Program-made: the position numbers and the translations under genes
NCBI GenBank assembly: GCA_963745035.1
Contig: CAVUVW010000013.1
Location: forward strand, 32,001-96,000
From: an uncultured delta proteobacterium
Lineage (GTDB): Bacteria > Desulfobacterota > Binatia > UBA9968
Direction: 5' to 3'
DNA: 64,000 bases
The notes under the pieces: model-generated
Seen by the model: the letters and a program-made list of their open reading frames with translations, nothing else
Database searches by the model: none
What the model was told of the DNA's origin: nothing
In this document: in pieces, positions 562-19,249 of the stretch
Layout: each line of letters begins with the position of its first letter
Numbering within the stretch: position 1 is the stretch's first letter

Positions 562-1406
562 TTACGTCGAATGGAGCGAATAGTCGATCGCCAGCCGTTC
601 GGCGCCATAATATTCCTTGAGAAATTCGTGCTGACTTTCGTAGCGGCGCTTGGGTACCACGCGGCCCTGAAAAGAGACGACTAACGGATCGACATCGAAT
701 GGATAAGGCGTGACGACGGCGCGGCTTTCATCCTCGATGGTGAAAGTCAGAATCGCGTCCGCTTTTCCCGGCCGGGTCGGCATAGGCATATTGCTCATGG
801 TATTGCTCGGACCATTCTTGCGCTGCGGTGCTGTTGAACGGATAGCGATTGCAGACGAACTGCGCCATCTGATCGTAGACTTCCATCAATTTGAAATTCG
901 TCCAGAATTGTTCGTCGGAAACGTGACCGCGATATTCCTCGGAGCTTCTGCAATTGCCTGAGCAGTTCGCGCGATAGCTCTCCTGCTCGGCGAGAAATTC
1001 TTTGACCTCGGGATAAACGGTAAAGTCCGGCATATACGGGAGCAGACCCGCGCCCCTGGGTCAGCAAACCGTCGGCGTGCAGAGAAACGATATAGCCCGC
1101 GTAGGGATCCTGCTCGGCTAGACGATCGATGCCGTGGCGGTAGAAATCCAGCCACACTTTGCCGCCAAGATGCTTGATGCTGCCAATATAATCCGGCGGC
1201 AAACCTTCGCTGTTGAGCTGCGGCTTGATCTCCCAGTCCCACCAGCCGGTGTCGTGCTCCTGCGCGGCCAAGACCATGGCCGCGTAAGGCGAAGGGCGCG
1301 CAAAAGAGTCGTTGCCCCAATGGGCAGCGAACCAGCCGGCGACCTTCGAATGATCGACTTGTAAGATCAGCAGCAGTCGTTCGTCGTCATAGGGACAGAC
1401 CATCAT
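562..1406 (-). CDS. DUF3891 family protein, copy 1 (frameshifted, ORFs 795..1430, 728..1033, 562..798)
   Basis: LQVDHSKVAGWFAAHWGN...AAQEHDTGWWDWE motif. Aligns along its length with copy 2 at 6259..7104. GAGGA RBS upstream of the ATG at 1406. Confidence 0.8.
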
Positions 1407-1449
1407 AAACTTATATCCTCCGCTATCCATTTCGAATCAATGACGCCGT

Positions 1450-2423
1450 CTACATTCCATGCAATTTCCGTCGTACCGTCCCGCCAAAAATATCATCAAG
1501 CTCAGACGCCGACCATCCGGTATTTTTTAATGCGGCGACAGTATCCTTCTCGGCGTTCGCCACATGCGGCACATCCGTGCCGAAAACCAATCGTGTCGAC
1601 GCCCCACGTCGCGCGCGCGCACGCCAACGCCGGACCATGAGTACACGCGGTGTCGAAGTAACAGCGGCGTAAATAATAACTGGGCGGGTGCGGGCAATTC
1701 GAAAAACGTTGGTAGCCGCGATCGATGCGGTCCAAGATCATCGCCAAACTCCCGCCGAGGTGCGACCAAACGATTTTCACGTCAGGGCACTCTTCGAGAG
1801 TCCCGGAGAGAGCGAGCTTGGTCGCCGCCATCGCCGTTTCGCCCGGATATCCAACGGAAAGAAAAGTTCCCGGATCGTTTTGCGGCGCGTCGCAGGGATA
1901 GGTCGGATGCACCAGCACCATCAACTTGCGGCGGCTCATCTCTTGCCAAAAGTGTCGGAGCTCGGGCGCTTGCAATTGGAAATCGCCGACATTGGTCGCG
2001 ATGCCGACGCCGCGCGCGCCCATACCAAGAGCGCGATCCAACTCGTTGCACCATCTCGTTAGCGCTTCGTGCACGGCAGGACGGCGACGAAGCGAAAACG
2101 ACTTGGATATTGCCGGCAAACCGCGGCAAGCCCGTCGTTGACAAAACGCGCCGCCGCGGCATCGCCGGAGCCGGCCCAACCAACATTCAGCGCGCCGACA
2201 GAAAGTATCGCCATACCGATGCCGGCTTCATCCATCGAAGCTAATCGTTAGGCAAATCGTCCTGCTCCGGCGGCATCGACATGACGTGGCTGCCGCGGTA
2301 GAGGAGCGACTGCCCGCGCGGGTTGTCGATGAGCTTGAAGTCCGTCCGGCTCTTGATCACTTCGGTGAAGCAGCCCGCGGGATAGACATGGGCATGAACA
2401 TCGATAATTTGCGAATCCGTCAT
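1450..2423 (-). CDS. Amidohydrolase_2 family protein (ACMSD/non-oxidative decarboxylase-like), frameshifted
   Basis: IIDVHAH (HxH), LVHPT, WSHLGG and FGTDVPH motifs distributed across ORFs 2241..2423, 1502..2179 and 1450..1638. Confidence 0.85.
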
Positions 2424-2444
2424 CGGTAGAATTTACTCCTAAAA

Positions 2445-4763
2445 TCAATTAGCTTCGCCTCGCTGCTCTTTTACCAACTGCAGAACATAGTCCGGTCTTG
2501 AGCGGCAATTTTTCACTTCGACACCCAAGGCATTCGACACGGCATTTGCCAACGCCGCGCCCGCCGCGGTGATGCCGCCTTCGCCCGCTCCTTTGACCCC
2601 GAGCGGATTGTGCGGACTGGGAAAATCTTCGGTCGAGATCAACTGCGCTTTGGGCATCTCCATCGCCGTCGGCAGCAGATAATCCATGAAGTTCGTCGCC
2701 AGCGGTTGGCCGTCTTCGTCGTAAACGAATTCTTCCAACATCGCGCCGCCGATTCCTTGAGCCAGACCGCCGGCCATTTGTCCTTCGATAATCATGGGAT
2801 TGATCTTGCGGCCGACGTCTTCGGTCACCAGATAGTCCAGGATCTTGATCTTGCCGGTTTCTGGTATCGACTTCCACCGCCGCGACATGCACGCCGTAAG
2901 GAAATGGCCGCTTATCGGTGGCGAAAAAATCTTCCTCGGAAATGCCCGGCGTCATGCCGCTTTTAAGCGCCGGACCGGGCAGCGCCAAGCGCGCGAGATC
3001 GGTAAAGCTGAGAGACCGCTCCGGCGCGCCGCGGGCAGACGACGCGACCGTCGCTAAGGATCAGGTCGGCGGCATCAATTTCCAAACTAGCCGATGCCAG
3101 ACCGCAGGAGCTTGTCTTTGACTTTGCGCGACGCGCCGACGGCGGCGCTGCCCGCCATCACCGTCGAACGGCTGGCGTTGCTGCCGTTGCCGTAAGGAAC
3201 CTTCGCCGTGTCGCCGTGCACGACGCGCACATTCATCGATGGAAACTTGCAGCTCATCGGCAACGATCTGGCTCAGCGCCGTCGCGATGCCTTGGCCGAC
3301 CGAGTTGCAGCCGGAATAAAGAACGACCTTGCCGGCATTGTCGATCTTCGACCCGGGCATACTCCCATGGCCCGATGCCGCTGGTTTCGACGAAGCAGCC
3401 GATGCCGACGCCGACGGCGCGGCCTTCGTGCTTTGCGGCGGCGCAGGTGGTCTTGAGACTTTTCATAGCCGAAGCGCTCCAAGCGCGCGCTCGAACTGGC
3501 CCGGCAAATCGCCGGTGTCATAAACCATATAGTGAAAAGGATGCTTGCCCAGATCATAGGGCATTTCTTCATGGCGAATCAGATTGCGCCGTCGCACGTC
3601 AGCGGGATCGAGCTTCAAACGATGCGCGATCATATCCATTAGCCGTTCGCGGACGAAATTCGCTTCGTAGCGTCCCGGGCTGCGGTAGGTGCCGACCGGT
3701 GTCTTGTTGGTCAGAACGCAAAAAACGTTGCAGCGATAATTTTTTACCCGAAACGGGCCGCGCAGCATGGCCGATGCGGCGATGGCGGGGACGCCGCCGT
3801 GGGTGCGCGTGTAGCCGCCCATGTCGAAGAGAATCTCGGCGTCCATCGCCATGATCGTGCCGTCTTTCTTCACGCCGATTTTGACTCGGTGATTTTGCTG
3901 GCGCGACTGATTCATCGCCTTGAGGTTTTCCGAGCGGTCTTCGATCCAGCAAATCGGTTTGCGAAAATGCATCGCGGCAAAGGGAATCAGAAAATCTTCG
4001 GGATAGAATTCGCCGCGCGCGCCAAAGCCGCCGCCGACTTCCGGCTCGATGAAATGGATGCAGCTCTGCGGCAGACCGATGAGCTCGGAGAGAATGCGCC
4101 AATTGGTATGGGTCATCTTGGTCGGTCCCCACATGGTCAAAAGACCGCGCCCCTCGTCCCACTCGGCGACCAAGCCGCGATTCTCCAGCGGCACGGCGGA
4201 ATGGCGTTGGGTCGAGAATTCCTCCTCGAACGATCAGGTCGCATCGCCGCCAAAGCGCCATCGACGTCGCCGACATTGACTTGAAAGTTGGCCGCGATGT
4301 TGTTTGGCGTCGCGTCATGGAGCTGCGGCGCTCCGGGCTGCATGCTCTGCGCGCGCGTCGGTGACGGCGCCCAGCGCGCGTATTCAACGTCGATCAATTC
4401 GAGGGCGTCCTCGGCGATGTAACGGTTCTCCGCGACGACCACGGCGACCGGGATCGCCGACGTAGCGCACTTTGTTCGTCGCAATCGGCGTTTGTTGCGA
4501 GCGCTCCAGCCCGGGAATAACGCCGGTGCGCATGGGAATAGTTTTCACTCCCGGCATATCGGCGCGGTGAGCACGCCGATGACTCCGGGGATGTCGAGCG
4601 CGGCGGCTGCGTCTATCTTGACGATCCGCGCGTGAGCATGAGTGCTGCGCAAGATCGCTGCATGCACCATGCCGGGGCGATGAATATCGCCGACATATTT
4701 GCCGATGCCGCGGAGAAGCCTCAGGTCTTCTTTGCGTTTAACTCTTGAGCCGATGTACGGCAT
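2445..4763 (-). CDS. Xanthine dehydrogenase/CoxL-family molybdopterin-binding large subunit, frameshifted
   Basis: IGSRVKRKEDLRLLRG N-terminus, VGGGFGAR, GTYRSPGR loop, GQGIAT, IEGQMAGGLAQGIGG and KGAGEGG. Confidence 0.9.
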
Positions 4764-4770
4764 AAAAATC

Positions 4771-4805
4771 AGTCTCGAGTTTCGGGTCTGGAGTCTCGGG
4801 TTTGC
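4771..4805. repeat. Short degenerate heptamer tandem repeat
   Basis: agtctcg agtttcg ggtctgg agtctcg ggtttgc, lying between the Fe-S and large-subunit genes. Confidence 0.6.
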
Positions 4806-4835
4806 GGTGAATATGTCGACCTTGCTCTTGGATCA

Positions 4836-5363
4836 TCAGTTTTGTGCCGTGCCGGATATTGCAGACCGTGAGCGCGTTAGACAGCTTTTTGCGTTCATGG
4901 TTTTCGCCGCTTCCTGGATCGCCGCGACGATATTTTGATAACCCGTGCAGCGGCATAAATTGCCGCTGATCCATTCGCGGATTTCCTCCTCGCTCGGATC
5001 GGGAATTTCTCTCAAGAGCGCCTCCGCCGTCAGCAGGATCCCCGGCGTGCAAAAACCGCACTGCAGGCCATGCAGCTCCCAAAATTTTTCTTGCAGCGGA
5101 TGAAGCTCGGTTGCGCTCGGCGCCAATCCTTCGATGGTTTTCAACTCGCGCCATTGGCTTGCACGGCGAACAGCAGACATGAGCGCACCGGCTCGCCGTT
5201 GAACAGAATCGTGCAGGCGCCGCACACGCCGTGCTCGCAGCCCACGTGGGTGCCGGTGAGCCCCAGATCGTCGCGCAGGAAATCGGTGAAAAGCTTGCGC
5301 GGCTCCACGTCACCGCGTGTACTCGCGGCCGTTGATCGTCAAGCGCACCTGTCGATCCTTCAT
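4836..5363 (-). CDS. (2Fe-2S)-binding small subunit (CoxS/CutS-like), frameshifted
   Basis: [10 protein letters not shown] can be reconstructed from the DNA; QCGFCTPG and GNLCRCTGY are in ORF 4836..5225. Confidence 0.9.
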
Positions 5364-6240
5364 CGCGAAGGGCCTCGTACCGATACGGCCGCGCGGTCTG
5401 CCGCCTGGACAAGAGCGCGGCGTGCCAACGCTTCACAGGCGCTGCGCCGGTACTCGGCGCTCGCATGGATGTCCGCATCTTGCTCCATGTTTTCGGTCGC
5501 CCGCCGCGCTGCCTCCATGAAAGCGGCGCTGATGGCTTCTCTCCCATCAGAAATTCCTCTGATGCGACGGGCAGGAAGCGGCTTCGCTCCCGTGAGAGTG
5601 AGCCGCGCATGGCGGATCTTCCCTTCGGCATCCAAAGCGATGACTGCTGCCGCCCCTGCCAACGCAAAATCGCCGTGACGGCGGCTCACTTCCTGATAGG
5701 ACCAGCCGGTATGCGCCGGCAGCCGGCACGATGATCTCGGTCAGCAACTCTTCCGGCTCCAGTGCCGTGGTCATATAGGAGACAAAAAATTCCTCGGCGC
5801 GAACCCTCCGCCGTTCGTCTCGGGAAGCCAGCACCATCGATGCATCGAGGCTCACCATCGCGACTGGCAGCTCGGCGGAAGGAAAAGCATGAGCCAAGCT
5901 GCCGCCGATCGTACCCCGGTTGCGGATCTGGATGTGGCCGATGAAACCCGCCGCCTCGCGGAGCAGCGGCCAACCTTCTGCGACCTCCGGCGACCGCTCA
6001 AGCTGCCGTTGCCGCATGGTCGCGCCGATGCGCAACACGCCATCTTGTACTCTGAGATAATCCAGTTCACCGATGCGGTTTAAATCGATCGAGATGAGCG
6101 GGCCGGAGCAGGCGAAAATTCATCAGCGGCACCAGGCTCTGGCCGCGGCGAGCGGCGGGCCCGTCGCCGAACTGCGACATCAGATTCAGCGCTTCATCGA
6201 GGCTGGTAGGATCATGGTAAGCAAAAGCCGCCGGTTTCAT
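5360..6240 (-). CDS. FAD-binding medium subunit (CoxM/CutM-like), frameshifted
   Basis: MKPAAFAYHDPTSLDEA start, IRNRGTIGGSLAHA and SRRHGDFALAG. Confidence 0.9.
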
Positions 6241-6258
6241 CTCGCCGCGTCCGCGCCA

Positions 6259-7104
6259 TCACGCCGAGGCGAGGGTATGCTCAATCGTGATCTTTTCCGC
6301 GCGGTAAAATTCGTCGAGAAACTCCTCGCCGTCCTTATAAACCCGATTGGGCACCAGCCGCGCGCTGAATGAAACCGGCAGCGGATCGATGTCAAAGGGA
6401 TACGGGCGCAGCACAGCCTTGTTCGGGCCGACGGTGTCGACCTCAATTTTCACCGCCGGTTTGCCGTGTCGAGTCGGCACGTCGACGTCATTCAGCGTGT
6501 TGCTCGGACCGAGCTTGCGCGCTTTGCTGTTGAGCGGATAGCGATTGCAAACGAACTGAGCGAGCTGATCGAAGACTTCCATGTATTCATAGTTCGTCCA
6601 GATCTGCTCCTCGGAACAGTGGCTTTTGAACTCGGCGGATTGGCGCAATTGGGCGAGTAGTCCAAGGCGCAGGTCTTCCTGATGATCGACGTAAGCTTTG
6701 ACCCGCGGGTCCGACGTGCGGTCCGGCGGATAGGCGTACTTGCCGTAGCCGGCGTTCATCAGCGCGACGCCGTGCATGGCCATGAGCATCGCCGCGTAGG
6801 GATCGCGCGTCAGCACTCGGTCCACCGAATTCTTGTAAAAATCCAGGCGAAGCTGGCCAAGATATTTTAGGCTGCCATCGTGGTAATCGAGCGGATAGCC
6901 CTTGTCGTTCAAGTTCGACGGCTACATTTCCCACTCCCACCAGCCGCTATCGTGCTCGTGGGCGGCCAACACCACCGATGAATACGGCTGCGGCCTATCG
7001 AACGCTTGATTCCCCCAGTGCGCGGCAAAGTGGCCGGCTACCCGCGAGTGGTCGATCTGCAACGCCAAGATGATCCGCGTATCGTCGTAAGGATAGGCCA
7101 TCAT
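6259..7104 (-). CDS. DUF3891 family protein, copy 2 (in-frame TAG at 6922-6924)
   Basis: LQIDHSRVAGHFAAHWGN...AAHEHDSGWWEWE. ORFs 6922..7104 and 6259..6912 are in the same frame, separated by one TAG where copy 1 has Lys. Confidence 0.8.
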
Positions 7105-7171
7105 TTTCTTTTACCTCATACGCCTTCGTAGGCAGGTCCGAGTCTTTTTGCATTCACAGACAAAGAACCGT

Positions 7172-7672
7172 TCAAAACAAAGTTCCGCCGCCGAGAATGA
7201 TCGCCACCGGCGCCTGGATGGAATTCATCGACTTCACGGCACCGGCGATGGCAGTCCGAATATCCTCCGCACGACTGACAAATTCGTAGCTGATACGCAT
7301 CGCATCGAGCAGCGGCGCAGTGCCCCAGCCCACTGGGACGGAAAACCATCTTTGATCGTGAAAGCCGCCCCGGTGAGCGATCAAGAGCAGCATCGGCACT
7401 CCGAAGGGAATCGGGCCGCGCATCAATGCATAGGGAGTGACAGCGAAGCCGGTGTTTTCCATGATCATGACCGGCTTCTTGCCGCCCAGCCAAGCGCCCA
7501 TGCACACACCGACGCCGTCTCCCTCGTTGGCGACCTGGATGTATTCGACCTGCGACTGTTCACTCAAAGGCTCATAGAGTTTTTTGAAGGCGGAATCCGG
7601 CAGGCATGCGGCAAAATTGATTCCCGAACCGATCAGCGAATCGAGCGTAAGTTTGGCCGCCTCAGGTTTCAT
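7172..7672 (-). CDS. ThDP-dependent decarboxylase alpha (PYR) subunit, sulfopyruvate decarboxylase ComD-like
   Basis: CLPDS, VANEGDGVGVCMGAWLGG (catalytic Glu), MENTG; 166 aa. Confidence 0.85.
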   Translation of the reverse strand: MKPEAAKLTLDSLIGSGINFAACLPDSAFKKLYEPLSEQSQVEYIQVANEGDGVGVCMGAWLGGKKPVMIMENTGFAVTPYALMRGPIPFGVPMLLLIAHRGGFHDQRWFSVPVGWGTAPLLDAMRISYEFVSRAEDIRTAIAGAVKSMNSIQAPVAIILGGGTLF

Positions 7673-7681
7673 TGCGTTTCC

Positions 7682-8293
7682 TCATATCGCACCTTCTAGA
7701 ATTTTGATGCCCTCTGTTTCCTCGATGAGGCGCACGAAACGAAACTTGTTTTCTTGGCCGCTGAAGTTCGGCCCGGCGCCGCGCTCATAACCCGGCTCGA
7801 CCTTGCACACGATCTCCGCAGGGCCGCCCTGAGAAATAAACTTCGAAAACTCGCCGGCGAACGCGTCAACGCTCTCCACGGTAGCGCAAGCCGCGAGCCC
7901 GGCTCCCTTCGCTAGAACGGACAGCTCCGTTCCGTGGGCGGTCTGGCTCGCCGGCCCGCCGCGGCTGCCATAGAGATGCTCGTTGTCGAACACGACGATG
8001 CAAAGATTCTTCGGCTTGTACGTGCCCACCACCGCAAGAATGCTCGGCGACAAGAGCTGGCTGCCGTCGGTATCGAGAGCGATGATTCGTCGATGAGGCA
8101 AGGCCCTGGCCAACCCGAAAGAGACCGGCGTGACCATGCCCATGCCGACCAGGTACAAGTTCATCGGACGATGCATGGTGTGGAAGCATTCATTGGTCGT
8201 TCCGGCGAGCGCCGCGACAACGATGTCCTTCTCCTCGAGAAAGCCGGAAAGCCGCAGCAGGATTTCTTTTCGCGTCACCTTAGCTCGCGCCAT
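7682..8293 (-). CDS. ThDP-dependent decarboxylase beta (PP) subunit, ComE-like
   Basis: GMGM...FGLA and DTDGS-x(24)-DN, a variant of the GDG...N ThDP/Mg motif. Confidence 0.85.
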   Translation of the reverse strand: MARAKVTRKEILLRLSGFLEEKDIVVAALAGTTNECFHTMHRPMNLYLVGMGMVTPVSFGLARALPHRRIIALDTDGSQLLSPSILAVVGTYKPKNLCIVVFDNEHLYGSRGGPASQTAHGTELSVLAKGAGLAACATVESVDAFAGEFSKFISQGGPAEIVCKVEPGYERGAGPNFSGQENKFRFVRLIEETEGIKILEGAI

Positions 8294-8413
8294 TGTTGAC
8301 TCCCGTCTGTTCCATTAGGATCACCCATTACGATTTAGGTTGAAGCCGGTGGCTTCGTCAACAGGTCGTCATCCTTACAATCGCAAACTGATTAACAACC
8401 GATATTCCTCGGC

Positions 8414-9354
8414 TTAGTTGACTTCCCGCGCGATGGAAAAATCGACGAGCTTATCGAAGTTGACCGGCTTGCCCTCGAATTGACTGCCGAGAAGCGAGTT
8501 CTCCAACGCCTTTTTGGAAGCGATACCATTCCTCGTCGCATGCTTGACCACAAGCTCATAAATGTGTTCCACCGCGCTGGCCTCGATACCGCGCAGGTTT
8601 TTCTGGATGATCGCTTTGGTCTCGACGGGATAGCGCGCCATGTAGTCCAATGATCTCCCGACCGCTCGCACGACCTGTTCGCCTCTTCGCGGTCGGTTTG
8701 AAGTTTCTTCTGGCTCATCCCCAAACCGGCAAAAAGTGTTTCCATGTAATCGCCCAGCGGCAAAATGGTTTCTGGCCGAGCTTGTGGGCGATCAAGTTGG
8801 ATGGCACTTGCAGCACTGCCGCCGCAACGATTTTCGCTTCGAGCGCCGAAATGCGCGCCGCGTCCGTGCCGCTGCCGATGGCCAACAACTTTACGTCCTT
8901 ATCGGGATCGATATTGTTCGCTTTGAGCGCGAACCGAACCGCGTATTCCGTAGACGCGCCGTAGCGGCTGATTCCGACAGGCTTGCCGCGCAAGTCGTTG
9001 AAAGATTTGATCTCCGGGCGGGCGACAAGATCGAAGAAGGTTCGATTGTAGACACCCAGGATCGTGACTAACGGCGCGCCCGCCACCGCGGCGCGTAAAA
9101 CGCTCGAAGAGCTTTGCATGTAGTCGACGTCGCCGGTGATCAGCCCTTTGACGGCGAGGTCTGAACGCATGACGACGTATTCGACCCGCAAACCGGCATC
9201 CTCGAAAAACTTTCGCTCGATGCCGACCCAAATCGGCGTATTGGTCAAAACCACCGAAGAGGTCGCGATCACGATATTCTTGCCATCGGCTCTGGCAACA
9301 AAAGCGACAATAGATAAATCGAAGCGAACGAAAAGTTTTTCCAAGCGTCTTCAT
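8414..9354 (-). CDS. NMT1/THI5/SsuA-like ABC substrate-binding protein, frameshifted
   Basis: IKSFNDLRGKPVGISRYGAST, IDPDKDVKLL and RISALEAKIVAA; N-terminal hydrophobic stretch. Confidence 0.85.
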
Positions 9355-9395
9355 GTCCCGAAACTCCCGTTGTCAGTTGCATTTCCGCGTTTTCC

Positions 9396-10082
9396 TCAGT
9401 GCTGTCCCTCCAACCAATTTACGATATCGGCGAGGATCGGCGCGCGGTCCACATTGTTCAGATGATGATTGCCGCCCTCCACAGATCGATGCTGCGCCAC
9501 GGATTGCAGCTTCTCGTATAGAAGCTTGCCGTGCCCGTGCGGCACTGAAGCGTCTGCGGTGCCTTGAACGATCAAGACCGGTTTTTTGAGTCCGCCCACG
9601 ATCTCCATCGCGTCGGCGGCGCGGAAATGTCTTTCCTGAAGCGGACCGAAGCGGGCTTCCAGGATCGCGCGCGCGTTGGCGTTGTCTTCGAGGATTCGCG
9701 TCAGGCTGCAGAACGGCGCGATCGAAACTGCTCCGGCGAAACAGTTGTATTGGGTTGCGGCAACCAGCGCCATGGTCCCGCCCGTGGATTGGCCCATGGC
9801 CCAGACTTTATTGACGATTTGCCGTCATCGCGGCGGCGCAGGCGGCCATGTCGACCGGCCATAGACTCAAATCCGCTGGCCGGTGGAGCTGCCGTAGCCG
9901 CGCTGTTCGAAACGCAGCACCGTGTAGCCGCGGCCGGCCAACATTGCAAGCAAGTCGTCATAGGGCGTGCCACCGCCCCAGCCATGGCAGAACACGATGC
10001 CTTCGTCGCGGCTCTTTGCCGGCGTCCACATGGCGCAGTGGAGCAGCGCGTCGCTGCTCTTGATGTAGAAGGATATCGGCAT
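9396..10082 (-). CDS. Alpha/beta hydrolase, frameshifted
   Basis: FCHGWGG oxyanion motif, RGYGSS, GQSTGG nucleophile elbow, QGTAD and GGNH triad residues. Confidence 0.88.
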
Positions 10083-10098
10083 AATCGCTCGACTCCCG

Positions 10099-10766
10099 TC
10101 AATTTTTCATGAACCGCTCGTAGAGACCGTTGGTACCGATGACTTTCAGCTGCAGGGATTTTTTCGCGGCGGCGGTCGCCTTTTGCTGCAACTCATCGGT
10201 GGTCGCATAATGTTTCAAGACGTAGGCGCCCAGATTGGCGTGATCGTCTTCCTCCTCGGCGTGCTCGCCGTAGAAGCGCAACAGCGAAGGGTAGGGATAA
10301 TATTTCTTCGTGGCTTCGTACATGCGATTGCCGGCGCGCGTGTTGGTGCGCTCGTTGCCGAAATTGTTCGCCGCCGCGATCTCGACGATATGGCCGCGTG
10401 AAAGCCAGTAGTAAAAATAGGGCGTGGTGAACTCGGGAATGAGCTCCATACGGCGCATCTCGTCCGGGTCTCGGCCGATCTCTTTGGCGAATTCGACAAA
10501 TACTCCGGATGAGGCGCTTCTTCGTGGGTGTAGGCTATGTATTTCAGCCCCAAGTCCGGATCGGGGCAGCGTTGAATCCAGGAGCATAAGATCGAGGGGA
10601 TATGTTTGAGATAGGCATACCATTGGCCCATGATCTGAAAAAGCTGCTCTTTGCTCAGTTTGCCGCTGCACCAAGCGTCATAATATGGAGACGCGATAAC
10701 CTCGCGCCGGAGCGGTTCGAGCTCGCGATCCAACCATTCGACAAATTCATCGCCGGACATTGCCAT
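10099..10766 (-). CDS. Heme-oxygenase-like diiron protein (PqqC/TenA/CADD-type), paralog A, frameshifted near 10500
   Basis: Apparently all-helical, ~222 aa, with EExxH (HEEAPH), NE and HxxxExxH (HAEEEDDH). About 75% identical to 12891..13577 by manual alignment. Confidence 0.8.
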
Positions 10767-10794
10767 AAGACTTCCTTTCTGTCTTCCCTGACTG

Positions 10795-11832
10795 TCATCT
10801 GATTTCTTCGGGGATGATGCGTCCATCGTCTACGATGGTTTTGCCATCGAGCTCGAATTTCGCGCGGCGTAGGATCAAATCTTCGTGCGCCATGGTCTTG
10901 TTCTTGCCGCCCAAGCGATAGTTCGCGCCAAAGGCGATCTGCACGTTGCCGTAGGTCGATCTGACCTCGCGGGCGCCCTCTTCAGTGCCGCGCTGGGCGA
11001 TCTCCGACCAACGCGCGCGGTGATCGGTGCCCCAGCCGATGTGAGAGATAATGTAGGCTTCAGGGTCCCGCGCTTGCTCCATGTGGTCTTGTAACAAGAC
11101 CGCGTCCACGCCGCCGTCGATGCGTTTGATCACGCCGTTGACGACTTCGATGCGCACCGGTTCGGTGACGTAACGGCCCAGCATGACCATCAAATCGCCG
11201 ACGTCGAGAACCAACATGCCGTTCGCAGATTCTTCTTCCGGCGCGCAATAAAGAAAGCCCGAGGGCCAACTGTCCCATCGGCCTTTCTCATCGCTGATGC
11301 CGAGCTGGGTTAGCGCCGGACGGCCGCGCTTGCGCATGGTCAGGTCTGAACCCGCTTTGGACGCAAGCCGTATTTCGGTCGCGCCGTCGAGCCATCTCGC
11401 GCCTTTTATTGTTCTTTGGCGCACGTCGTCCGTGGGAAAGCAGCGGCGCAGCTGATCCTCGTTCGCCTTGACCTGAAGGACCCTCGTGCCGCCGGCGAGG
11501 ACCGCGCCCAATCCTTCGCCATAGATGTAAAGCGTGCTGCCGGTGGACAGGTCGATGACAAAGTCGGCGCTCTTTAGCACCGTGAGTACCGGCGCAAGAT
11601 TGATGCTCTTGCCTTCCGCCTCGGGCAAGAACGGAACTTTAACTTCGAAGATGCTTCCGGCAAGCTCCTTACCGGCAGCCAAGAACGCGGCGACATAATT
11701 CGGATTGGTTCTCGTGTCGGTGAAGAGCACGACCGTTTCCTTCCGATCTACCTTGCATAGACGCAATTCGGCGAGCGCCATGCCGACCAGGTCGCCGCCG
11801 ATCTCACCGGAAATGGGAAAACGCACAGTCAT
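10795..11832 (-). CDS. nicX: 2,5-dihydroxypyridine 5,6-dioxygenase-like protein (NicX family, M29 aminopeptidase-like fold)
   Basis: GRWDSWPSGFL, ISHIGWG and AHEDLILR retain the His...His-x-Asp Fe ligands of NicX; 345 aa. Confidence 0.78.
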   Translation of the reverse strand: MTVRFPISGEIGGDLVGMALAELRLCKVDRKETVVLFTDTRTNPNYVAAFLAAGKELAGSIFEVKVPFLPEAEGKSINLAPVLTVLKSADFVIDLSTGSTLYIYGEGLGAVLAGGTRVLQVKANEDQLRRCFPTDDVRQRTIKGARWLDGATEIRLASKAGSDLTMRKRGRPALTQLGISDEKGRWDSWPSGFLYCAPEEESANGMLVLDVGDLMVMLGRYVTEPVRIEVVNGVIKRIDGGVDAVLLQDHMEQARDPEAYIISHIGWGTDHRARWSEIAQRGTEEGAREVRSTYGNVQIAFGANYRLGGKNKTMAHEDLILRRAKFELDGKTIVDDGRIIPEEIR

Positions 11833-11874
11833 AGACTTTCCTCCAAACTACAGATCCTCGCCCGTAGCGAGTGC

Positions 11875-12858
11875 TCATTTGCCGATTTCCTTCTCCAGCT
11901 GACTTACATATTGCGCATCGATCAGATTATCGGTTACCAGCTTGGCCACGTTGGGATCCGATTTGCCGAGGAAGTCCTTGACTACCCGGACACCGTCGAC
12001 CGCGGGAGATGGAACATCCTTGTATAGGGGCCCGTGAACCCTCCAGGTCTCCTCGAGTGCGGCCGAATCCTTGAGCTGCATGAACTGGGCTAGTCCCTTT
12101 ATCGCCGCGTCTTTGTTGGATTTGTAAATCCGGAGACCTTTTCCCATGGCCGATAGAACTTTATAGACTTCGTTGCCGCGCCGCTGCTGAGTGCTGCGCA
12201 GCACCACGAAGGAGGCGGCGGAGGAGGGGATTCCGAGGCTTGCCAGATCGACCAATAAATTCAGCCCCGCTTGTTTCGCGAGAAGAGTCAATGGCGGCGC
12301 GACAAAGGTCGCCTGCACCACGCCGCTCTTCAGCGCGGCAAAACGCGAGGTTTGAGCGCCGATCTGAATCAAGGCGACATCTTTCTCGGGCGTAAGGTTC
12401 AGCTTCCCGAGCACCGCGCGCGCAAGAAACTCGGTGTAGTCGCCCAAGCGATCGATGGCCAATTTCGCGCCTTTCATATCGGCGGGTGATTTGATCTCCG
12501 GGCTCGTTATCAGCGTGAGGACTTCTTTATCCATCACGCCACCGACAAATTTCACTTCAGCGCCCTGAGCCGCCGCTCGAATCGGACTGGCCGCGGCGAC
12601 AATCATCATCTGCACATCGCCGGCAACAAACGCTTGGGTGATCTGCGGTCCGCCGATATAGACAAACTGCGCGCGGATGCCCTGCTGCTCCAGCAGGCGT
12701 TGCTGTTGAATGAGACCGATAAAGCCATAGGTACCGCCGTTGGATGAGTAGCCGATCGGAAAGTCGGCAAGCGGCGTGGCCGCGTCGGCGCGAAATGGCA
12801 GCGCGCCAAGGGCGACGAGAACAGGGAGCCACGCCAGTCTTTGAGCCGTTCGAAACAT
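11875..12858 (-). CDS. NMT1/SsuA-like ABC substrate-binding protein
   Basis: Signal peptide ending ADA; IKSPADMKGAKLAIDRLG and RFAALKSGVVQAT. Close paralog of 15008..15993. Confidence 0.88.
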   Translation of the reverse strand: MFRTAQRLAWLPVLVALGALPFRADAATPLADFPIGYSSNGGTYGFIGLIQQQRLLEQQGIRAQFVYIGGPQITQAFVAGDVQMMIVAAASPIRAAAQGAEVKFVGGVMDKEVLTLITSPEIKSPADMKGAKLAIDRLGDYTEFLARAVLGKLNLTPEKDVALIQIGAQTSRFAALKSGVVQATFVAPPLTLLAKQAGLNLLVDLASLGIPSSAASFVVLRSTQQRRGNEVYKVLSAMGKGLRIYKSNKDAAIKGLAQFMQLKDSAALEETWRVHGPLYKDVPSPAVDGVRVVKDFLGKSDPNVAKLVTDNLIDAQYVSQLEKEIGK

Positions 12859-12890
12859 GGGCGTTGCCGGAGTCGGATCCTCGGAATTCT

Positions 12891-13577
12891 CTACGAAGCA
12901 GCGCCCTGCCAGTTTTTGATAAAGCGATCGCATAGCGCATTCTGGCCGAGAATCTTTAGCTGCAAGGATTTCTTGGCCGCGGCTGCCGCCTTGTATTGCA
13001 GCTCGTCGGTCGTCGCGTACTTCTGCAAGACGTAAACACCGAGGTTGGCATGGTCGCCTTCTTCTTCTGCGTGATCTTCGAAGAACTTGATCAGTGAAGG
13101 ATACGGATAGTACTTCACCGTCGCTTCGTGCATGCCCCGGCCCCGGCGCGTGTTGGTCCGTTCGTTACCGAAGTTGTTGGCGGCGGCGACTTCCACGATG
13201 TGGCCGCGTGAGAGCCAGTAGTAGAAATAAGGCGTAGTAAATTCCGGTATCAAAACAGCTTGACGCATCTCCTCGGGGTCGCGCCCCATCTCTTTCGCGA
13301 ATTCCACGAGGTATTCCGGATGCGGCGCTTCCTCGTGCAAATAGGCGATATACTTCTGCTGCACGTCGACATACGGACAGTTCTGAATCCACGCCGCGAG
13401 AATATGCGGGATCTCACGGAGGTAAGCATAGCGTTGCTTCATCAATTCAAAAACTTGCTCCTTGCTCAACTTGCCACTGCACCATGCTTCGAAATAGATA
13501 GATGACGATGCTTCACGACGCAGCGGCTCCAGCTCGCGATCCAACCATTCGACAAACTGTTCACCTGACATGGCCAT
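12891..13577 (-). CDS. Heme-oxygenase-like diiron protein (PqqC/TenA/CADD-type), paralog B
   Basis: HEEAPH, GNE and HAEEEGDH motifs. Start MAMSG set by homology to paralog A. Confidence 0.82.
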   Translation of the reverse strand: MAMSGEQFVEWLDRELEPLRREASSSIYFEAWCSGKLSKEQVFELMKQRYAYLREIPHILAAWIQNCPYVDVQQKYIAYLHEEAPHPEYLVEFAKEMGRDPEEMRQAVLIPEFTTPYFYYWLSRGHIVEVAAANNFGNERTNTRRGRGMHEATVKYYPYPSLIKFFEDHAEEEGDHANLGVYVLQKYATTDELQYKAAAAAKKSLQLKILGQNALCDRFIKNWQGAAS

Positions 13578-13686
13578 CGACAAATCCCTCCGCTGTTGCA
13601 AACACGACGCTTCTATTTCCCTGGATTCCTTTGTACCCACGGGACCAAGGGAAACTCTCGTCTCCGCCGTTCCTCGGGGGTGCACC

Positions 13687-14502
13687 TTAGCTCGCGACCC
13701 TCAACATGATCTCTTCATCGAGCCCCAGTTTATCTATTTCGCTCGCGGCCAGACGCAATTTTTCCCCAAGCATGCCTTGCTCCCTTTTGGTCAACGAGCC
13801 TGATGGGAAGGCGACCGTCAGGGCTGCGACACAAACCCGGTCGTGATTTCTCAACGGTACCGAGATGGCGCAGAGTCCCTTGGTGCTCTCCTCGTTGCTG
13901 GTTGCGAAGCCCCGCAGCCGAACGTTGGCAAGCTCGGCTAAAAATCGCTCGAACGAGGTTATCGTCGTGCTCGTCAAGCGTCTCAGCCGCGCGCCTCTGA
14001 ATCTTCGTTTAACCTCGAGATCGCCAAGCTCGGCGAGCAAAACCTTCCCGGACGCGCTCGCGTAGGCGGCGGCACTAGAGCCCACCTCGACGGTGACTCT
14101 CACCCTGCTGGTTCCGTCCAGTCGCTCGACAAAGATAACCGAAACTCCGTCGAGAACGCTCATAGTTACCGTATGGCCGCTTTCCGAGACGAGTTGGCGC
14201 ATCACGGCGCGCATCTTTGCGCGCCGGTCCACATTCAAATAGCCGGCGCCTACTGAAAAGGCGTTGACGCCGATTTTATAACTCCGCTGCGTGTCATCGC
14301 GCTCGAGAAATCCGTACCGTTCCAGGGTGGCGAGCACCCGGAAGGTCGTCGACTTATTGAACCCGAGTAGCCGCGCGGCTTCGCTGAGTCCGAGCGGCCG
14401 GCCTAACTCTTTGAGCTTGAGCAACAACTGGAGCCCCTTGGATAGAGACGACAGCGGCTTCTCGGTTTGTTTCACCGGTTTGGATGCAGAACTATTAGCC
14501 AT
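13687..14502 (-). CDS. IclR family transcriptional regulator
   Basis: SLSKGLQLL...LSEAARLLGFNKSTTFRVLATL HTH; YASASGKVLLA and VRLRGFATSNEE effector domain. Confidence 0.95.
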   Translation of the reverse strand: MANSSASKPVKQTEKPLSSLSKGLQLLLKLKELGRPLGLSEAARLLGFNKSTTFRVLATLERYGFLERDDTQRSYKIGVNAFSVGAGYLNVDRRAKMRAVMRQLVSESGHTVTMSVLDGVSVIFVERLDGTSRVRVTVEVGSSAAAYASASGKVLLAELGDLEVKRRFRGARLRRLTSTTITSFERFLAELANVRLRGFATSNEESTKGLCAISVPLRNHDRVCVAALTVAFPSGSLTKREQGMLGEKLRLAASEIDKLGLDEEIMLRVAS

Positions 14503-14676
14503 TATTTTATCCCGCGCCTTCGGCTTTTGAGTTTTAAACCGGCTGTCCCTTTAGTCGCCTCGAGACCTTGTGCACTCCCCTTGACGCGCGGGGTCGCCAC
14601 GCCGACAACACTTCTGCGGTGGGAGGCCGGCCTTCACTCATACTCGCGAGCCGACCCTTCGCCCGGTTGGTTCATT

Positions 14677-14696
14677 ATTATAACCGACGGTTACAA
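14677..14696 (-). promoter_or_regulatory. Palindromic operator overlapping a TATAAT -10 element upstream of the IclR operon
   Basis: TTATAACCG-A-CGGTTACAA, with a perfect TAACCG-N-CGGTTA core at 14681-14693. Minus-strand TATAAT at 14677-14682. A minus-strand TTGACA at 14732-14737 is too far to pair with this -10. Confidence 0.55.
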
Positions 14697-15007
14697 AAAC
14701 TTAGCCCAGCCTTATTGAAAGGGCAGTTTGATGTCAAGAAGCTCAACGAAGAGAAAGTATACTCTTGCGCGATCAGCACGAGCGTGTTTCCGCAAAGAGG
14801 GATGAAGGCCGGAATCTGTCCGCGATGGCTTCGGTAGATTTTCCATGACTGCTCTCTTCCTATGAGAAAAACGATGCCTATCGTCAATCCTCAAGCCGCC
14901 TACAGTTTTGATCGAAAGCCACAACGACAACTAACCTGGCCGAATCGCGTGATCGGAGCACAGGCGATCCCATCGCAGGCTGAGGATAGCCGGGCGAGTT
15001 TTACGGT

Positions 15008-15993
15008 CTACTTGGATGGCAATTCCCGCTTGAGCTTTTCGACGAAGCGCGTGTCGATGATCTCGTCGACGTTCAATTTAGCCACTTTGGGATCGTTCTG
15101 GCCGAGAAAGTCCTTGACCATTTTGATGCCGGCTATCGCCGGCGCAGGGATATCTTGAAAGATTTTGGCGTGGCTGCGAAACATCTCGTCGAGCGCTTCG
15201 GCATCGTTCACCTTCATGAAGCGCGCCAGACTGCGGATCGCCGCCTCCCGATTATTCTTGAACAGGCGCAGCGCTCGGGCGATAGCGCGCAGCACCCCAT
15301 AGACTTCTTTTTCCTGTCGCTCAGCCGTCGACTTCATGATGACGATGGAAGCAGAGGTCGACGGAAAACCCAGGTCGGCCAGGTCGATCAATGAGCGGAA
15401 GCCCGCCTTCTTCGCGATCAACGTCAATGGCGGCGCCACGAAGGTTGATTGAACTTGACCCGTTCGAAGCGCCGCAAAACGGCCCGTCTGCCCGCCGATC
15501 TGCAGGAGAACCACATCTTTTTGCGCTTCAAGACCGAGCGCTCCAAGACTTTGCGAGCGCGAAAATCCGTGTAATCGCCGAAGTCGTCGATCGCCATGCG
15601 GGTACCTTTGAGTTCAGCCGGTTTAGTAATATTTGATCGGCGATCACCGTGAATGTTTTCCTTGTCCGTGACCCCGCCGATAAAGCGCACGTCCGCGCCA
15701 TGAGCCGCCGCGCGAACCGGGCTGGCGCCGGCGACGATGGCCATGCGAATGTCTCCCGCGATCAGCGCCTGAGAGATCTGCGGACCGCCGATGTAGACAA
15801 ATGTCGGTCGGATTCCTTCCTGCTCTAGAAGTTTCTGCTCCTCGATCAGCGGAATGAACCCGTAGGTGCCCCCGAGCGAGGAATAGCCGATGGGAAAGTC
15901 ACTCTGCGCGCTCGCCGCTACAACCGGGACAATACAGGCGCCTACAAGAAAACTATTAAACCATTTGCCTTTGCCAAAGATCCTACCGAGCAT
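15008..15993 (-). CDS. NMT1/SsuA-like ABC substrate-binding protein, frameshifted
   Basis: FPIGYSSLGGTYGFI, YIGGPQI and RFAALRTGQVQSTFVAPPLTL; paralog of 11875..12858. Confidence 0.87.
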
Positions 15994-16150
15994 GACTCCT
16001 CCTGGATGAGAACTTGCTTCCGTCCGGATTGTCGTGAAAAACCCGTCCAACACGGTGCTTTCTACGCGATGTTACGTTGCCAAATTGTGGGGACATTCTT
16101 AACGATGCGGTCCTTTCTCTCTGCCTATTTGCGGGAACGCCGAACCATTG

Positions 16151-17104
16151 TCACGTCCCTAGAGTACTCGGATGAAACATTTCTTCCGGGTCGAACTTAC
16201 GCGCCGTAATACCCTGGCGATGGCAGTACTCGAGCAGTTTGTTCACCTCCCGTTTGGTTTTCCGAAATCCCCAGAGGTATGAATCTTGGCCGGCGATAGC
16301 TTGCTCTTCCTCCCACAAAGCGCGGTACCAGAGCGCGGTCTGATGCACCCGTTGCCACTCGAGCCACTCGTAGCATTTCTTTTTCGACTCCTGCCAGGCG
16401 TTGTACATGCTCATGGCAACCCATGGATCTTTTTCCAGAACGGAGTTTTTTATCAATAGAGTGTGCATGATCGGAAAGAAACCTGTGCGCTTGAAATAGT
16501 CACGCTCCAGGTCTGCGTAGTTCGGAAACAGAAAATCGACATCGGGATGAACGTTCGGCGCCCAGGTCCCGGTGGTGATCGCCGCATCGATGCGCACCGC
16601 CGGCGAGTAGATCGAATTGCTTTTGCTCTTTCGGAACGATTTCTATTTTCAACCAAGCGGGCGGCTTCCAATCGCCGACGCCCGAAACACGGTCTGCCAC
16701 CCAGGTCACCGATTTCGGATCGAGACCGTATTCGTCTTCGAGCAGCCCTCTTGCCCAAACCGCGGTCGTCGTCAGCCAATTCTGTACGCCGATGCGCTTG
16801 CCGTTCAGATCGGCAGGCGACCGGATGCCGGCGCGCTTGTTGATGTAGATATAGGAATGGCGAAACATGCGTTTGACGAAAATCGGAATCGCCGTGTAGC
16901 CGAGGGTTCTATAGTGGAGATCGGCGACGTAGGTGCCGGTATAGAACTCGGCGACATCGAATTCCTTGCCGTCGATCTTCGTCTGCCGTCCCGGGCTTTT
17001 GTTGACGAGAATTCCAGATCGATACCTTCCGGCTTGACCGTCCCGTCGATCAGCGCTCGGGCGCGGTCATATGGACCGCAGGTCATGGATAATATCAAGG
17101 ACAT
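16151..17104 (-). CDS. 4,5-dihydroxyphthalate decarboxylase-like protein (periplasmic-binding-protein fold), frameshifted
   Basis: MTCGPYDRARALIDGTVKPEGIDL, FRHSYIYIN...DLNGKRIGV, YFKRTGFFPIMH and YCHRQG; no signal peptide. Confidence 0.8.
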
Positions 17105-17105
17105 G

Positions 17106-18098
17106 CTAATGAAGTTTGAAAACTCGGTTGAACTCTTTGCCGAGCTGCTCGTACTCTTCGGAGCTCACGTGCATGGTAAAAGTCTTCGCGCCTTTGAGAC
17201 GCGGATTCTTAGAGCCCATGCCGATCCTTCCCGGACTGCGACCTTTGTCCTGCAGCAGCTTTTGACCTTCCGCCGATAGCATGAAGTCGATAAATACTTT
17301 GGCCGCGTTGGGTCGCGGCGCGTTTTTGAGTAGAGAAATCTTGTTGGGATCGCCGCCGACCAGCGGATTCGGCGCCACCCACTGGAGCGGCGCGCCTTTC
17401 TCTGCGTATTCATCGACTCTATGCTGGTACAGCGATACCGCCACAGGAAACTCGCCCGCCGATACCAGCTCGCTGATCAAGAGTGTAGCCCTTGCGAAAA
17501 TTTATCTGTTGATCGGCGAGCCGGCGCCAAAACTCCAAGCCTTTGTCTTTTCCCCGCGCCTTCATGAGCGCGCCGAACAGATAATACTCTTCGGCGTCCC
17601 AACCGAGCTGTCCTTTCCAGCGAGGGTGGAGCAAATCTTCATAATTCTTGGGAGCAACTTCGGCGGAAACGAGCCTGCTGTTATAGCCGATGACATAGAT
17701 CGTCTGATGCAATCCCATGCCGAAACCATCCGAATCGCGCCAATCGGCGGGAAAATTCGCGGCTTCGCTGGATTGATACCGGTCGAGCGAGCCTTTCTCT
17801 TTCAAGATTCCCGATTGAATGCCGCTGACCGCCACGACGTCGCCGAGAAATTTGTTGGCGCGGTGCTCGCTCAAGAGACGGGTCAGTGTTCTCTCGCTGC
17901 TTGCCCTGACGGTTTCGACTTTCAGCGGCGCATATTTTTTCTCGAAAGCTTTGACGACATAGTCGGCATCGCTCGGTCCCCATGAGGTGTAAAAACGACT
18001 CTGCCTTCTTGCTTGGCTTTGGCGAGGTCTTGGGCGAGGCCGGCGCCAAAAAATAACGGCACACTCAGAGCCACTAGGATGCTTGCGGCGCGCCTCAT
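17106..18098 (-). CDS. Extracellular solute-binding protein (AfuA/Fe3+/thiamine-type), frameshifted
   Basis: GYNSRLV...PKNYEDLLHPRWKG, AGEFPV and APRPNAAKVFIDFMLSAEGQ. Confidence 0.87.
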
Positions 18099-18111
18099 GA
18101 AACCCCCTTGG

Positions 18112-19091: not shown

Positions 19092-19183
19092 GAAGAGCGC
19101 GAAGGATCCGAAGTTCCCTCTTGGAAAAACATTTGACTTAGGGGAGATTTTCGTGAATCTTCGTAGCGACTTTGCTGCATGAA

Positions 19184-19216
19184 GAAATCCCCTGATCCCC
19201 TTTTCCAAAGGGGGAA
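19184..19216. repeat. REP-like palindrome
   Basis: aaatcccctgaTCCCCTTTtccAAAGGGGGA hairpin in the intergenic space downstream of the UbiD gene. Confidence 0.5.
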
Positions 19217-19249
19217 ATTTTGCTGTGGCGAGTTGGTAGCAACAAGTGC

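Follow-up and report, generated by a model that had tools for sequence, protein, structure and literature searches.

The 64-kb stretch analyzed here (64,000 nt of contig CAVUVW010000013.1, from an uncultured member of Binatia; hereafter, the window) carries a cluster of fifteen genes, all on the minus strand at positions 562–14502, which is conserved in soil bacteria labelled Candidatus Binatia and is composed of two separable modules fused in one co-oriented array. We tentatively suggest, with confidence slightly short of even, that this is a real catabolic locus acting on an N-heteroaromatic acid. Among pyridine-type catabolic clusters the locus represents a variant, several components of which are uncharacterised, and the copy assembled in the window is not intact.

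Gene families have been assigned by comparison with Pfam, NCBIfam and PDB, and by tblastn with the intact orthologues from the related genome G012. An original prediction, made by reading the sequence alone, had listed the same fifteen families in the same order and orientation, and this was borne out: the paired heme-oxygenase-like putative di-metal oxidases (HDO-A and HDO-B, related to CADD), the paired DUF3891 proteins, the ACMSD-type amidohydrolase_2 and the split thiamine diphosphate (ThDP) enzyme are all present, and Pfam scanning of the gene pieces also retrieves the families in order. The description as fifteen genes holds for families and order; uninterrupted open reading frames (ORFs) are found for just six of the fifteen; the earlier reader must have bridged the breaks. 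The genes, all on the minus strand, are listed below 5' to 3' along that strand (SBP, solute-binding protein; HSP, high-scoring segment pair).

13687–14502, minus strand: IclR-family regulator, 271 aa, intact ORF; Pfam IclR_C 144 bits, HTH_IclR 52.6 bits
12891–13577, minus strand: HDO-B, heme-oxygenase-like (CADD/PqqC-like) putative di-metal oxidase, 228 aa, intact; Pfam PF14518 37.4 bits
11875–12933, minus strand: SBP1, NMT1/SsuA-type periplasmic solute-binding protein, 352 aa, intact; Pfam NMT1 41.9 bits
10795–11832, minus strand: predicted NicX-like Fe(II) ring-cleavage dioxygenase, 345 aa, intact; PDB 7cn3, E 1.8e-57
10099–10793, minus strand: HDO-A, paralogue of HDO-B; frame broken near 10496–10499, two ORF pieces; PF14518 30.3 bits on the C-terminal piece; tblastn HSPs in two frames, 93% and 80% identical to HDO-A of G012
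9396–10082, minus strand: alpha/beta-fold hydrolase (G012 orthologue, 228 aa); two 1-nt indels that compensate each other, near 9821 and 9876; Pfam Hydrolase_4, Peptidase_S9 and Abhydrolase_1 on the window pieces and the G012 orthologue
8414–9350, minus strand: SBP2, NMT1-type solute-binding protein; four frameshifting indels (about 9334, 9297, 8773 and 8679); tblastn with the G012 orthologue in two frames; NMT1 59.3 bits on the N-terminal piece
7682–8293, minus strand: ComE-like ThDP enzyme beta subunit, 203 aa, intact; Pfam TPP_enzyme_C 34.3 bits
7172–7672, minus strand: ComD-like ThDP enzyme alpha subunit, 166 aa, intact; Pfam TPP_enzyme_N 18.7 bits, under the cut-off
6259–7104, minus strand: DUF3891a, 281 aa in G012; one in-frame TAG at 6922–6924; PF13030 82 bits on a piece
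5360–6240, minus strand: CoxM-like FAD subunit; six frameshifting indels, tblastn with the G012 orthologue in three frames; FAD_binding_5 123 bits and CO_deh_flav_C 56.7 bits on separate pieces
4836–5429, minus strand: CoxS-like [2Fe-2S] subunit; two frameshifting indels near 5318 and 5143; Pfam Fer2_2 114 bits
2445–4763, minus strand: CoxL-like molybdopterin subunit, 768 aa in G012; 13–15 single-base indels; Ald_Xan_dh_C, MoCoBD_1 (211 bits) and MoCoBD_2 on four pieces
1450–2426, minus strand: amidohydrolase_2, ACMSD-type putative decarboxylase, 326 aa in G012; five frameshifting indels, tblastn in four frames
562–1406, minus strand: DUF3891b, 282 aa in G012; four frameshifting indels, tblastn in two frames

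Module A comprises the genes from IclR to SBP2 (IclR, HDO-B, SBP, NicX-like, HDO-A, alpha/beta hydrolase, SBP), and module B, the remainder (ComE/ComD-like, DUF3891, CoxMSL, amidohydrolase_2, DUF3891); the genes may be co-transcribed.

Recurrence and modularity of the cluster

Two related genomes, G012 (locus L009) and G008 (locus L010), have the complete array in collinear order with the window copy, with 75–82% of nucleotides identical and with none of the genes interrupted, that for the 768-aa CoxL included. The window order, with the IclR gene at its head, is also observed in locus L018, where the IclR orthologue is 81% identical, and in L016 and L017 it is divided over two contigs. As the same order is intact in G012, G008 and L018 and split over L016+L017, the arrangement is not due to chance, and the recurrence in other genomes, which had been named as a check on the original prediction, is thereby established. 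Moreover, both HDO genes, DUF3891a and CoxL are found on a single contig of genome G328 at the expected spacing. Where both modules are present, they are always fused in identical order and orientation (the window, G012, G008, G328, L018, and L016+L017), with gaps of 13–220 nt in L018. The arrays differ in two features: IclR is absent from L009 and was not found in L010, and two short-chain dehydrogenase/reductase (SDR) genes, not seen in the window, separate DUF3891a from CoxM in G012 and G008.

The NicX-like gene is present in 15 of 41 related genomes, with 83–88% identity in three congeners and 67–68% in seven genomes of another family. A pattern scan with one genome per species yielded eight loci of the HDO-A/B clade, all of them in metagenome-assembled genomes, mostly titled Candidatus Binatia.

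The two modules also occur apart. In a soil and rhizosphere metagenome scan with DUF3891, 80 loci (77–91% identical) were retained from 455 confirmed relatives of DUF3891a. Where 700 nt or more follow DUF3891a (62 loci), the next gene is SDR1 (26 loci), CoxM (19), CoxL (five), or ComD, SBP0 and IclR (one each), the remaining nine having another gene or none. Long contigs contain module B as a self-contained unit of SBP(s), ComE, ComD, DUF3891a, sometimes the SDRs, CoxM, CoxS, CoxL, amidohydrolase_2 and DUF3891b, and in L082 the upstream genes are on the opposite strand. Among the 21 informative metagenome loci, defined as those with over 3 kb of sequence upstream of module B or with a module A gene present, 17 have module B without module A; HDO, NicX or hydrolase genes are found in four, among them the G008 contig itself (L051).

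The genome of the window (G000) itself has a second, unbroken array on another contig (C14:144257–150836), with the order SBP–DUF3891a–CoxM–CoxS–CoxL–amidohydrolase_2 and with no HDO, NicX or ComDE genes. It is approximately 81% identical to the window copy at the DNA level, and its DUF3891a and CoxL are 86 and 88% identical to those of G012. In the 98% complete genome G007, HDO-B, the NicX-like protein and HDO-A are present, the best CoxL match being 37% identical and the best DUF3891a match having E 4.9e-29.

The taxonomic distribution of the two paired families differs as well. The HDO clade is present in ten of 123 genomes of the order and in two of 251 genomes of the phylum sample, whereas DUF3891 is found in 87 of the 123 (three flagged unpublished genomes included). 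As HDOs are rare and DUF3891 is common, the paired HDOs and paired DUF3891s are neither one co-inherited set nor an obligate pair, and the original prediction lacks support on this point.

Several loci have a different gene content. L019 (positions 8160–13309; the same as L110) has a hydrolase and an HDO gene on one strand, and on the other, an HDO, a 159-aa stand-alone CoxS-like protein, amidohydrolase_2 and DUF3891b; genes for a UbiD decarboxylase and a TctABC transporter are upstream, and NicX, CoxL and ComDE are absent. One could speculate that the lone CoxS-like [2Fe-2S] protein donates electrons to the HDOs. The HDO gene stands alone in L020, where the scanned neighbors are unrelated, and in L021. 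In L109, from another family, an IclR homologue heads a module-B-like array.

Predicted enzymes

The NicX-like protein matches no Pfam or NCBIfam model. Its homology to the solved NicX, 2,5-dihydroxypyridine (2,5-DHP) 5,6-dioxygenase of Pseudomonas putida KT2440 (PDB 7cn3), is near full-length, with E 1.8e-57 for the single sequence (residues 19–344) and 1.7e-62 for a profile of eight relatives. His264, His316 and Asp318 align with the residues His265, His318 and Asp320, given as Fe(II) ligands in the NicX report (PMC7910607), and each is invariant in all eight relatives.

The three-subunit molybdenum (Mo) hydroxylase of the original prediction is present: CoxM, CoxS and CoxL together have molybdenum cofactor, FAD and two [2Fe-2S] domains (Pfam), the G012 orthologues being full length. 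The best solved relative of the G012 CoxL is the large subunit of 6-hydroxypseudooxynicotine dehydrogenase (a ketone dehydrogenase; 7dqx, 2.3e-169, 568 bits), a member of the same three-subunit Mo/FAD/[2Fe-2S] family and an enzyme which we take to be a pyridine-ring hydroxylase; CO dehydrogenases and quinoline 2-oxidoreductase rank behind it. All NCBIfam equivalog models remain under their cut-offs, the best one being glyceraldehyde dehydrogenase alpha (687 vs. 790 bits), and sequence does not allow a substrate of CoxL to be assigned. Aerobic CO dehydrogenase (form I CoxL) was considered and rejected, as the active-site loop, presumably AYxCSFR in form I, has no AY....R match in the G012 CoxL, and the CO_dehy_Mo_lg model yields 518.6 bits with a cut-off of 991.

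For the G012 orthologue of amidohydrolase_2, the Pfam Amidohydro_2 score is 109 bits and the N-terminal HxH is visible; ACMSD is matched in PDB at 2.8e-24, and gamma-resorcylate, 5-carboxyvanillate and uracil-5-carboxylate decarboxylases, at 1e-15 to 1e-13. The ComE-like subunit has 95.1 bits with the NCBIfam model of sulfopyruvate decarboxylase beta (cut-off 221.5) and 84.6 bits with that of phosphonopyruvate decarboxylase, and the ComD-like subunit, 96.5 bits with sulfopyruvate decarboxylase alpha (cut-off 147.95). By these scores the pair are relatives of the ComDE/phosphonopyruvate decarboxylase group, rather than its members. The N-terminus of SBP1 is signal-peptide-like, and its NCBIfam SsuA_fam score is 74.2 bits, under the cut-off of 163.5.

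HDO-A and HDO-B are approximately 70% identical, the PF14518 cut-off being 28.9 bits, and 71 protein clusters of their clade have been found. The closest solved relative is CADD/4-aminobenzoate synthase (1rcw and 8va9; 2.8e-5 for a single sequence, 2.6e-8 for a profile). Glu118, Glu175, His205, Glu209 and His212, all invariant in the clade, align with five of the six metal-ligand positions of CADD, given the ligand numbering that we assume for CADD. At the position of His88, presumably the sixth ligand by the same numbering, the HDO has Tyr125, and an invariant His122 is three residues earlier, in an alignment of weak similarity. Apart from this weak similarity, the HDOs differ from CADD in their context, catabolic as compared to folate synthesis. 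The AlphaFold2 model, based on five sequences only, is all-helical and too poor for use (pLDDT 41.4, pTM 0.25).

Other HDO-related genes have been observed. In L009 (16186–16905, genome G012) a third, distant HDO-like gene, HDO-C, is located between two SBP genes upstream of the cluster; its product is 18% identical to HDO-B and matches PF14518 only at E 0.015, and a counterpart in the window was not found. At L014:14322–15734, 9 kb from the NicX-like gene of that locus, there are a bicupin gene and two distant genes of the HDO-C type. Four metagenome proteins of 195 aa (P0187–P0190), which bear the name pimeloyl-ACP methyl ester carboxylesterase, match 26% of HDO-B with about 70% identity; these may be gene calls running from the HDO end into the adjacent hydrolase, or real fusions.

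DUF3891a and DUF3891b are 46% identical; their G012 orthologues score 144 and 141 bits with PF13030 (cut-off 24), which is the only Pfam family at E ≤ 10. The structural model is confident (pLDDT 87.4, pTM 0.88). No sequence match was found in PDB, Foldseek gave no PDB matches at E ≤ 0.001, and an Atlas search retrieved only other DUF3891 clusters. The invariant residues are His19, His29, Glu50-His51-Asp52, His111 and Asp179. Their H...HD...H...D pattern is reminiscent of HD-domain proteins, an assignment that we have dropped to speculation, as the sole such match was SAMHD1 at rank 22 with TM 0.16.

DUF3891 probably partners amidohydrolase_2, as suggested by genomic positions. There are six DUF3891 places in G000 (C13:32948–33406, C13:38262–39104, C14:145330–146172, C10:81360–82091, C19:271584–272417 and C23:51993–52721), and at each of them an Amidohydro_2 match is within 5 kb, in two cases directly adjacent; given 153 Amidohydro_2 matches in 7.43 Mb, approximately 0.2 per place would be expected by chance. 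In L111, from another family, two Amidohydro_2 genes adjoin the DUF3891a orthologue in divergent orientation. Relatives of DUF3891a constitute 630 protein clusters. Binatia are uncultured, and soil and rhizosphere metagenome contigs contain many close relatives of DUF3891a.

Candidate pathway and its alternatives

The substrate is probably an N-heteroaromatic (pyridine- or pyridone-type) acid, as indicated by homology of the NicX-like protein with its His/His/Asp triad retained, and by the relation of CoxL to 6-hydroxypseudooxynicotine dehydrogenase with no motif of the CO dehydrogenase type. Module B would serve as the upper route, with the Mo enzyme hydroxylating a ring carbon next to the nitrogen using water, amidohydrolase_2 removing a ring carboxylate without oxygen, and the ThDP enzyme decarboxylating a 2-oxoacid, either a side chain or a cleavage product. 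Module A would be the ring-opening route, where the NicX-like Fe(II) dioxygenase would cleave a hydroxylated pyridone and the alpha/beta hydrolase would take off a formyl or acyl-amide group. The two HDOs would perform O2-dependent oxidation, and may add a ring hydroxyl or carry out oxidative decarboxylation.

One basis for comparison is the pic cluster of Alcaligenes faecalis JQ135, which serves picolinate degradation. According to its description (bioRxiv 10.1101/530550), it encodes the three-subunit Mo dehydrogenase PicA, the four-component monooxygenase PicB, the amidohydrolase-type decarboxylase PicC, the NicX-type dioxygenase PicD, the deformylase PicE, the maleamate amidohydrolase PicF and the maleate isomerase PicG, and such clusters are reported in Proteobacteria. 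The likeness to the components described there is at the family level, and comprises the three-subunit Mo enzyme, the amidohydrolase-type decarboxylase, the NicX-type dioxygenase and the hydrolase/deformylase. The window locus belongs to a different phylum, has no counterparts of PicB, PicF and PicG within the cluster, and adds two HDOs, two DUF3891 proteins, the split ThDP enzyme and NMT1-type SBPs.

Pfam scans indeed reveal no flavin or Rieske oxygenase, isochorismatase-type amidase or maleate isomerase among the fifteen genes, in agreement with the original prediction, and no maleamate amidase or maleate isomerase match in these genes or the scanned flanks. The rest of the genome has 13 loci of the Amdase family (PF17645, which we take to cover maleate isomerase) and 22 of the isochorismatase family over the cut-off. 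Candidates for the downstream amidase and isomerase steps are hence present elsewhere in the genome, and absence from the operon would not mean absence of the step. The original prediction regarded oxidative steps as missing, which applies only to nicotinate or picolinate as the substrate. Judging by analogy with the pic pathway, an already hydroxylated pyridine carboxylate could be converted to an open-chain amide by the hydroxylase, decarboxylase, NicX-type dioxygenase and hydrolase, and would need no flavin or Rieske oxygenase; what is missing therefore depends on the substrate.

A more specific variant of this scheme, improbable when all its parts are taken jointly, is an undescribed pyridine-type pathway abundant in soil Binatia. 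In it, DUF3891 would be a new metalloenzyme family that acts jointly with Mo hydroxylases and amidohydrolase_2 decarboxylases to degrade N-heteroaromatics, the HDO pair would take the place of the flavin or Rieske hydroxylase, and the altered NicX variant (Ser302Ala with Tyr-Gln-Ser) would open a pyridone other than 2,5-DHP. A literature search for DUF3891 under that name found no paper, and a search combining heme oxygenase-like, diiron, pyridine and catabolism also found none; as far as the literature was searched on these terms, the gene combination is not in print. If the cluster does degrade pyridine-type compounds, such pathways would reach beyond the Proteobacteria named for pic, and the locus would provide the first functional contexts for DUF3891 and the new HDO clade, along with a NicX variant with a rebuilt pocket.

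A number of observations weigh against the proposed scheme. According to the NicX paper (PMC7910607), the S302A substitution abolishes activity and iron binding, and specificity for 2,5-DHP is determined by His105, Glu177 and His189. The window protein has Ala300 at the position of Ser302, the fourth Fe ligand, and Tyr104, Gln176 and Ser188 at the positions of the three recognition residues; all four are invariant in eight of eight relatives, which come from two families, and the single-sequence and profile alignments agree. The Cys76 region of NicX is deleted. The assignment of a NicX-like dioxygenase in the original prediction thus stands at the level of the family and the His/His/Asp ligands, and fails for Ser302 and the recognition residues. 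By sequence, this would be a NicX-family dioxygenase with a rebuilt pocket, whose activity with 2,5-DHP cannot be assumed; as the pocket differs from that of NicX, the substrate would not be plain nicotinate or picolinate. Further, a 68%-identical NicX-like gene from another family (L014:3757–7689) is located not in this cluster but beside genes for an SDR, two TauD-family dioxygenases, a CoA-transferase and amidohydrolase_2. In the flank scans, no transporter permease or ATPase adjoins the SBPs. The promoter and terminator scan of L009 is at chance (13 vs. 10.3 and 22 vs. 21.7). Finally, modules A and B are found apart more often than together, and a shared pathway is not required.

The last point leads to an alternative that we regard as rather unlikely: the locus may be a catabolic island of functionally independent units, with adjacency in this genus being incidental, the modules acting on separate substrates, and the NicX-like enzyme not acting on the product of the Mo hydroxylase. 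The 17 of 21 informative loci and the C14 copy with module B alone, G007 with module A and no orthologous CoxL or close DUF3891a, the HDO pair of L019/L110 accompanied by the hydrolase, CoxS-like protein, amidohydrolase_2 and DUF3891b in the absence of NicX, CoxL and ComDE, and the solitary HDOs of L020 and L021 all agree with it, and dense packing would be normal in a genome with that many Amidohydro_2 matches and many Mo-enzyme paralogues. On the same grounds, the original claim of one pathway is weakened. However, in the six cases where the modules co-occur, their fusion is invariable and the gaps in L018 are short, in L109 an array resembling module B likewise has an IclR homologue at its head, and upper and lower pathway modules are often shuffled in catabolic operons. 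Far less probable is the handling of an organosulfonate or organophosphonate instead of a pyridine, with SsuA-type delivery and an enzyme resembling sulfopyruvate or phosphonopyruvate decarboxylase acting on a C3 product. It would explain the best NCBIfam names (SsuA_fam and the sulfopyruvate and phosphonopyruvate decarboxylases), a weak Phosphonate-bd match on SBP0 and the two TauD-family genes of L014, but the NCBIfam scores are all far under the curated cut-offs, Pfam scans of the cluster reveal no Xsc-, SsuD-, C–P lyase- or hydrolase-like desulfonating or phosphonate enzyme, and the homology of NicX and the Kdh-like CoxL points to N-heterocycles. Overall, the original prediction holds in part, both as an observation and in its interpretation; N-heteroaromatic catabolism is plausible, and a single new pathway is unproven.

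Frame breaks in the window copy and flanking genes

The six uninterrupted genes are IclR, HDO-B, SBP1, NicX-like, ComE and ComD; elsewhere in the cluster the ORFs are short and switch frame, and outside it the 64-kb window has long ORFs of the normal kind. Relative to G012, eight genes carry in total 40 indels of lengths not divisible by three (counts as listed above, with two in HDO-A and 15 in CoxL, the latter being 13 in one of two alignments to G012). The indels are 1–2 nt in size, and no gene-internal deletion is longer than a few bases. The TAG of DUF3891a stands at an AAA codon of G012. An alternative genetic code was rejected as an explanation, as the reading frame shifts at the breaks, and table 11 gives long ORFs in the remainder of the window.

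We consider it most likely that the approximately 40 frameshifts and one nonsense codon are local consensus errors of long-read metagenome assembly, and not gene decay. With the indels removed, CoxL has a proportion of non-synonymous differences (pN) from G012 of 0.054 and a ratio of non-synonymous to synonymous rates (dN/dS) of 0.048, and the intact genes have dN/dS of 0.029–0.087. As 15 real frameshifts should have brought a visible non-synonymous excess, and dN/dS is within the range of the intact genes, this argues for an artefact. Further data come from short-read contigs of public rhizosphere and soil runs aligned to the window, informative for the covered parts. They drop or add single bases at 4452, 5317, 5521, 5724, 6090, 8677, 8769, 9371, 9822, 9878, 10499 and 10770, that is, in the places where the alignment with G012 predicts breaks; for instance, a metagenome contig has an extra G behind 10499 in HDO-A, and contigs have a C inserted behind 8677 and behind 8769 in SBP2. 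Both break sites under near-identical contigs, 6090 and 5724 in CoxM, are unbroken there: record 2 of run X1 (5900–6146) has no mismatches to the window and lacks the extra base at 6090, and record 1, with four mismatches, has the CT that the window misses behind 5724.

The opposite possibility, which we regard as unlikely, is that the frameshifts are real and the window copy is a decaying pseudogene cluster, dispensable given the intact module B paralogue on C14. Several facts weigh on that side and against an artefact. Just two break sites are covered by near-identical contigs. Most contigs that correct the indels are 5–7% divergent, with third-codon bias (16 of 23 listed sites at 10119–10599); this divergence, mainly in third codon positions, indicates that they come from other strains. 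The TAG in DUF3891a is a nonsense substitution and not an indel, and the intact paralogue at C14:144257–150836 would make the loss of the window copy tolerable. The breaks are confined to 562–10600 and 15000–22000, with 10600–14700 being clean, and contig record 20 of run X3 (10089–11352) is approximately 7% divergent up to 10599, with one listed difference beyond. Position ~10600, inside HDO-A, is by these alignments a strain-mosaic or recombination boundary, the broken and clean parts differing in strain history. Yet it is the most broken gene, CoxL, that evolves like the intact ones, while 15 real indels should be accompanied by many neutral substitutions; deletions beyond a few bases are not seen within genes; the two sites under near-identical contigs are unbroken; and the module B paralogy is ancestral, G012, G024, G328 and G329 also having two close DUF3891a copies, so the redundancy is kept elsewhere. 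If the breaks are assembly errors, as we favor, long-read metagenome assemblies may hold local indel patches that resemble pseudogene clusters, and that a reader without tools bridges.

Low-ORF patches are dispersed over the contig, which also speaks for assembly errors. Upstream of IclR, three genes are each split between two frames, at 15011–15993 (an SBP orthologous to the "SBP-up" of G012), 18263–18956 (an SBP) and 20749–22000 (CoxL-like), and therefore the indel-rich patch resumes past the clean 10600–14700 segment. Rfam gave no matches at gathering scores on the window, L009 and L018, and hence no riboswitch lead. The downstream flank 3–9 kb past DUF3891b was considered as a part of the cluster and rejected, being not syntenic in G012 or G008. 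This flank (L023; G000:C13:18001–32600, window –8637 to +64) contains a second CoxL/S/M set, 31–47% identical to that of the cluster, a LysR gene, two NMT1 SBP genes, a glyoxalase-family gene, and a Rieske-domain ORF together with a LigXa_C ORF, the two resembling one split oxygenase gene.

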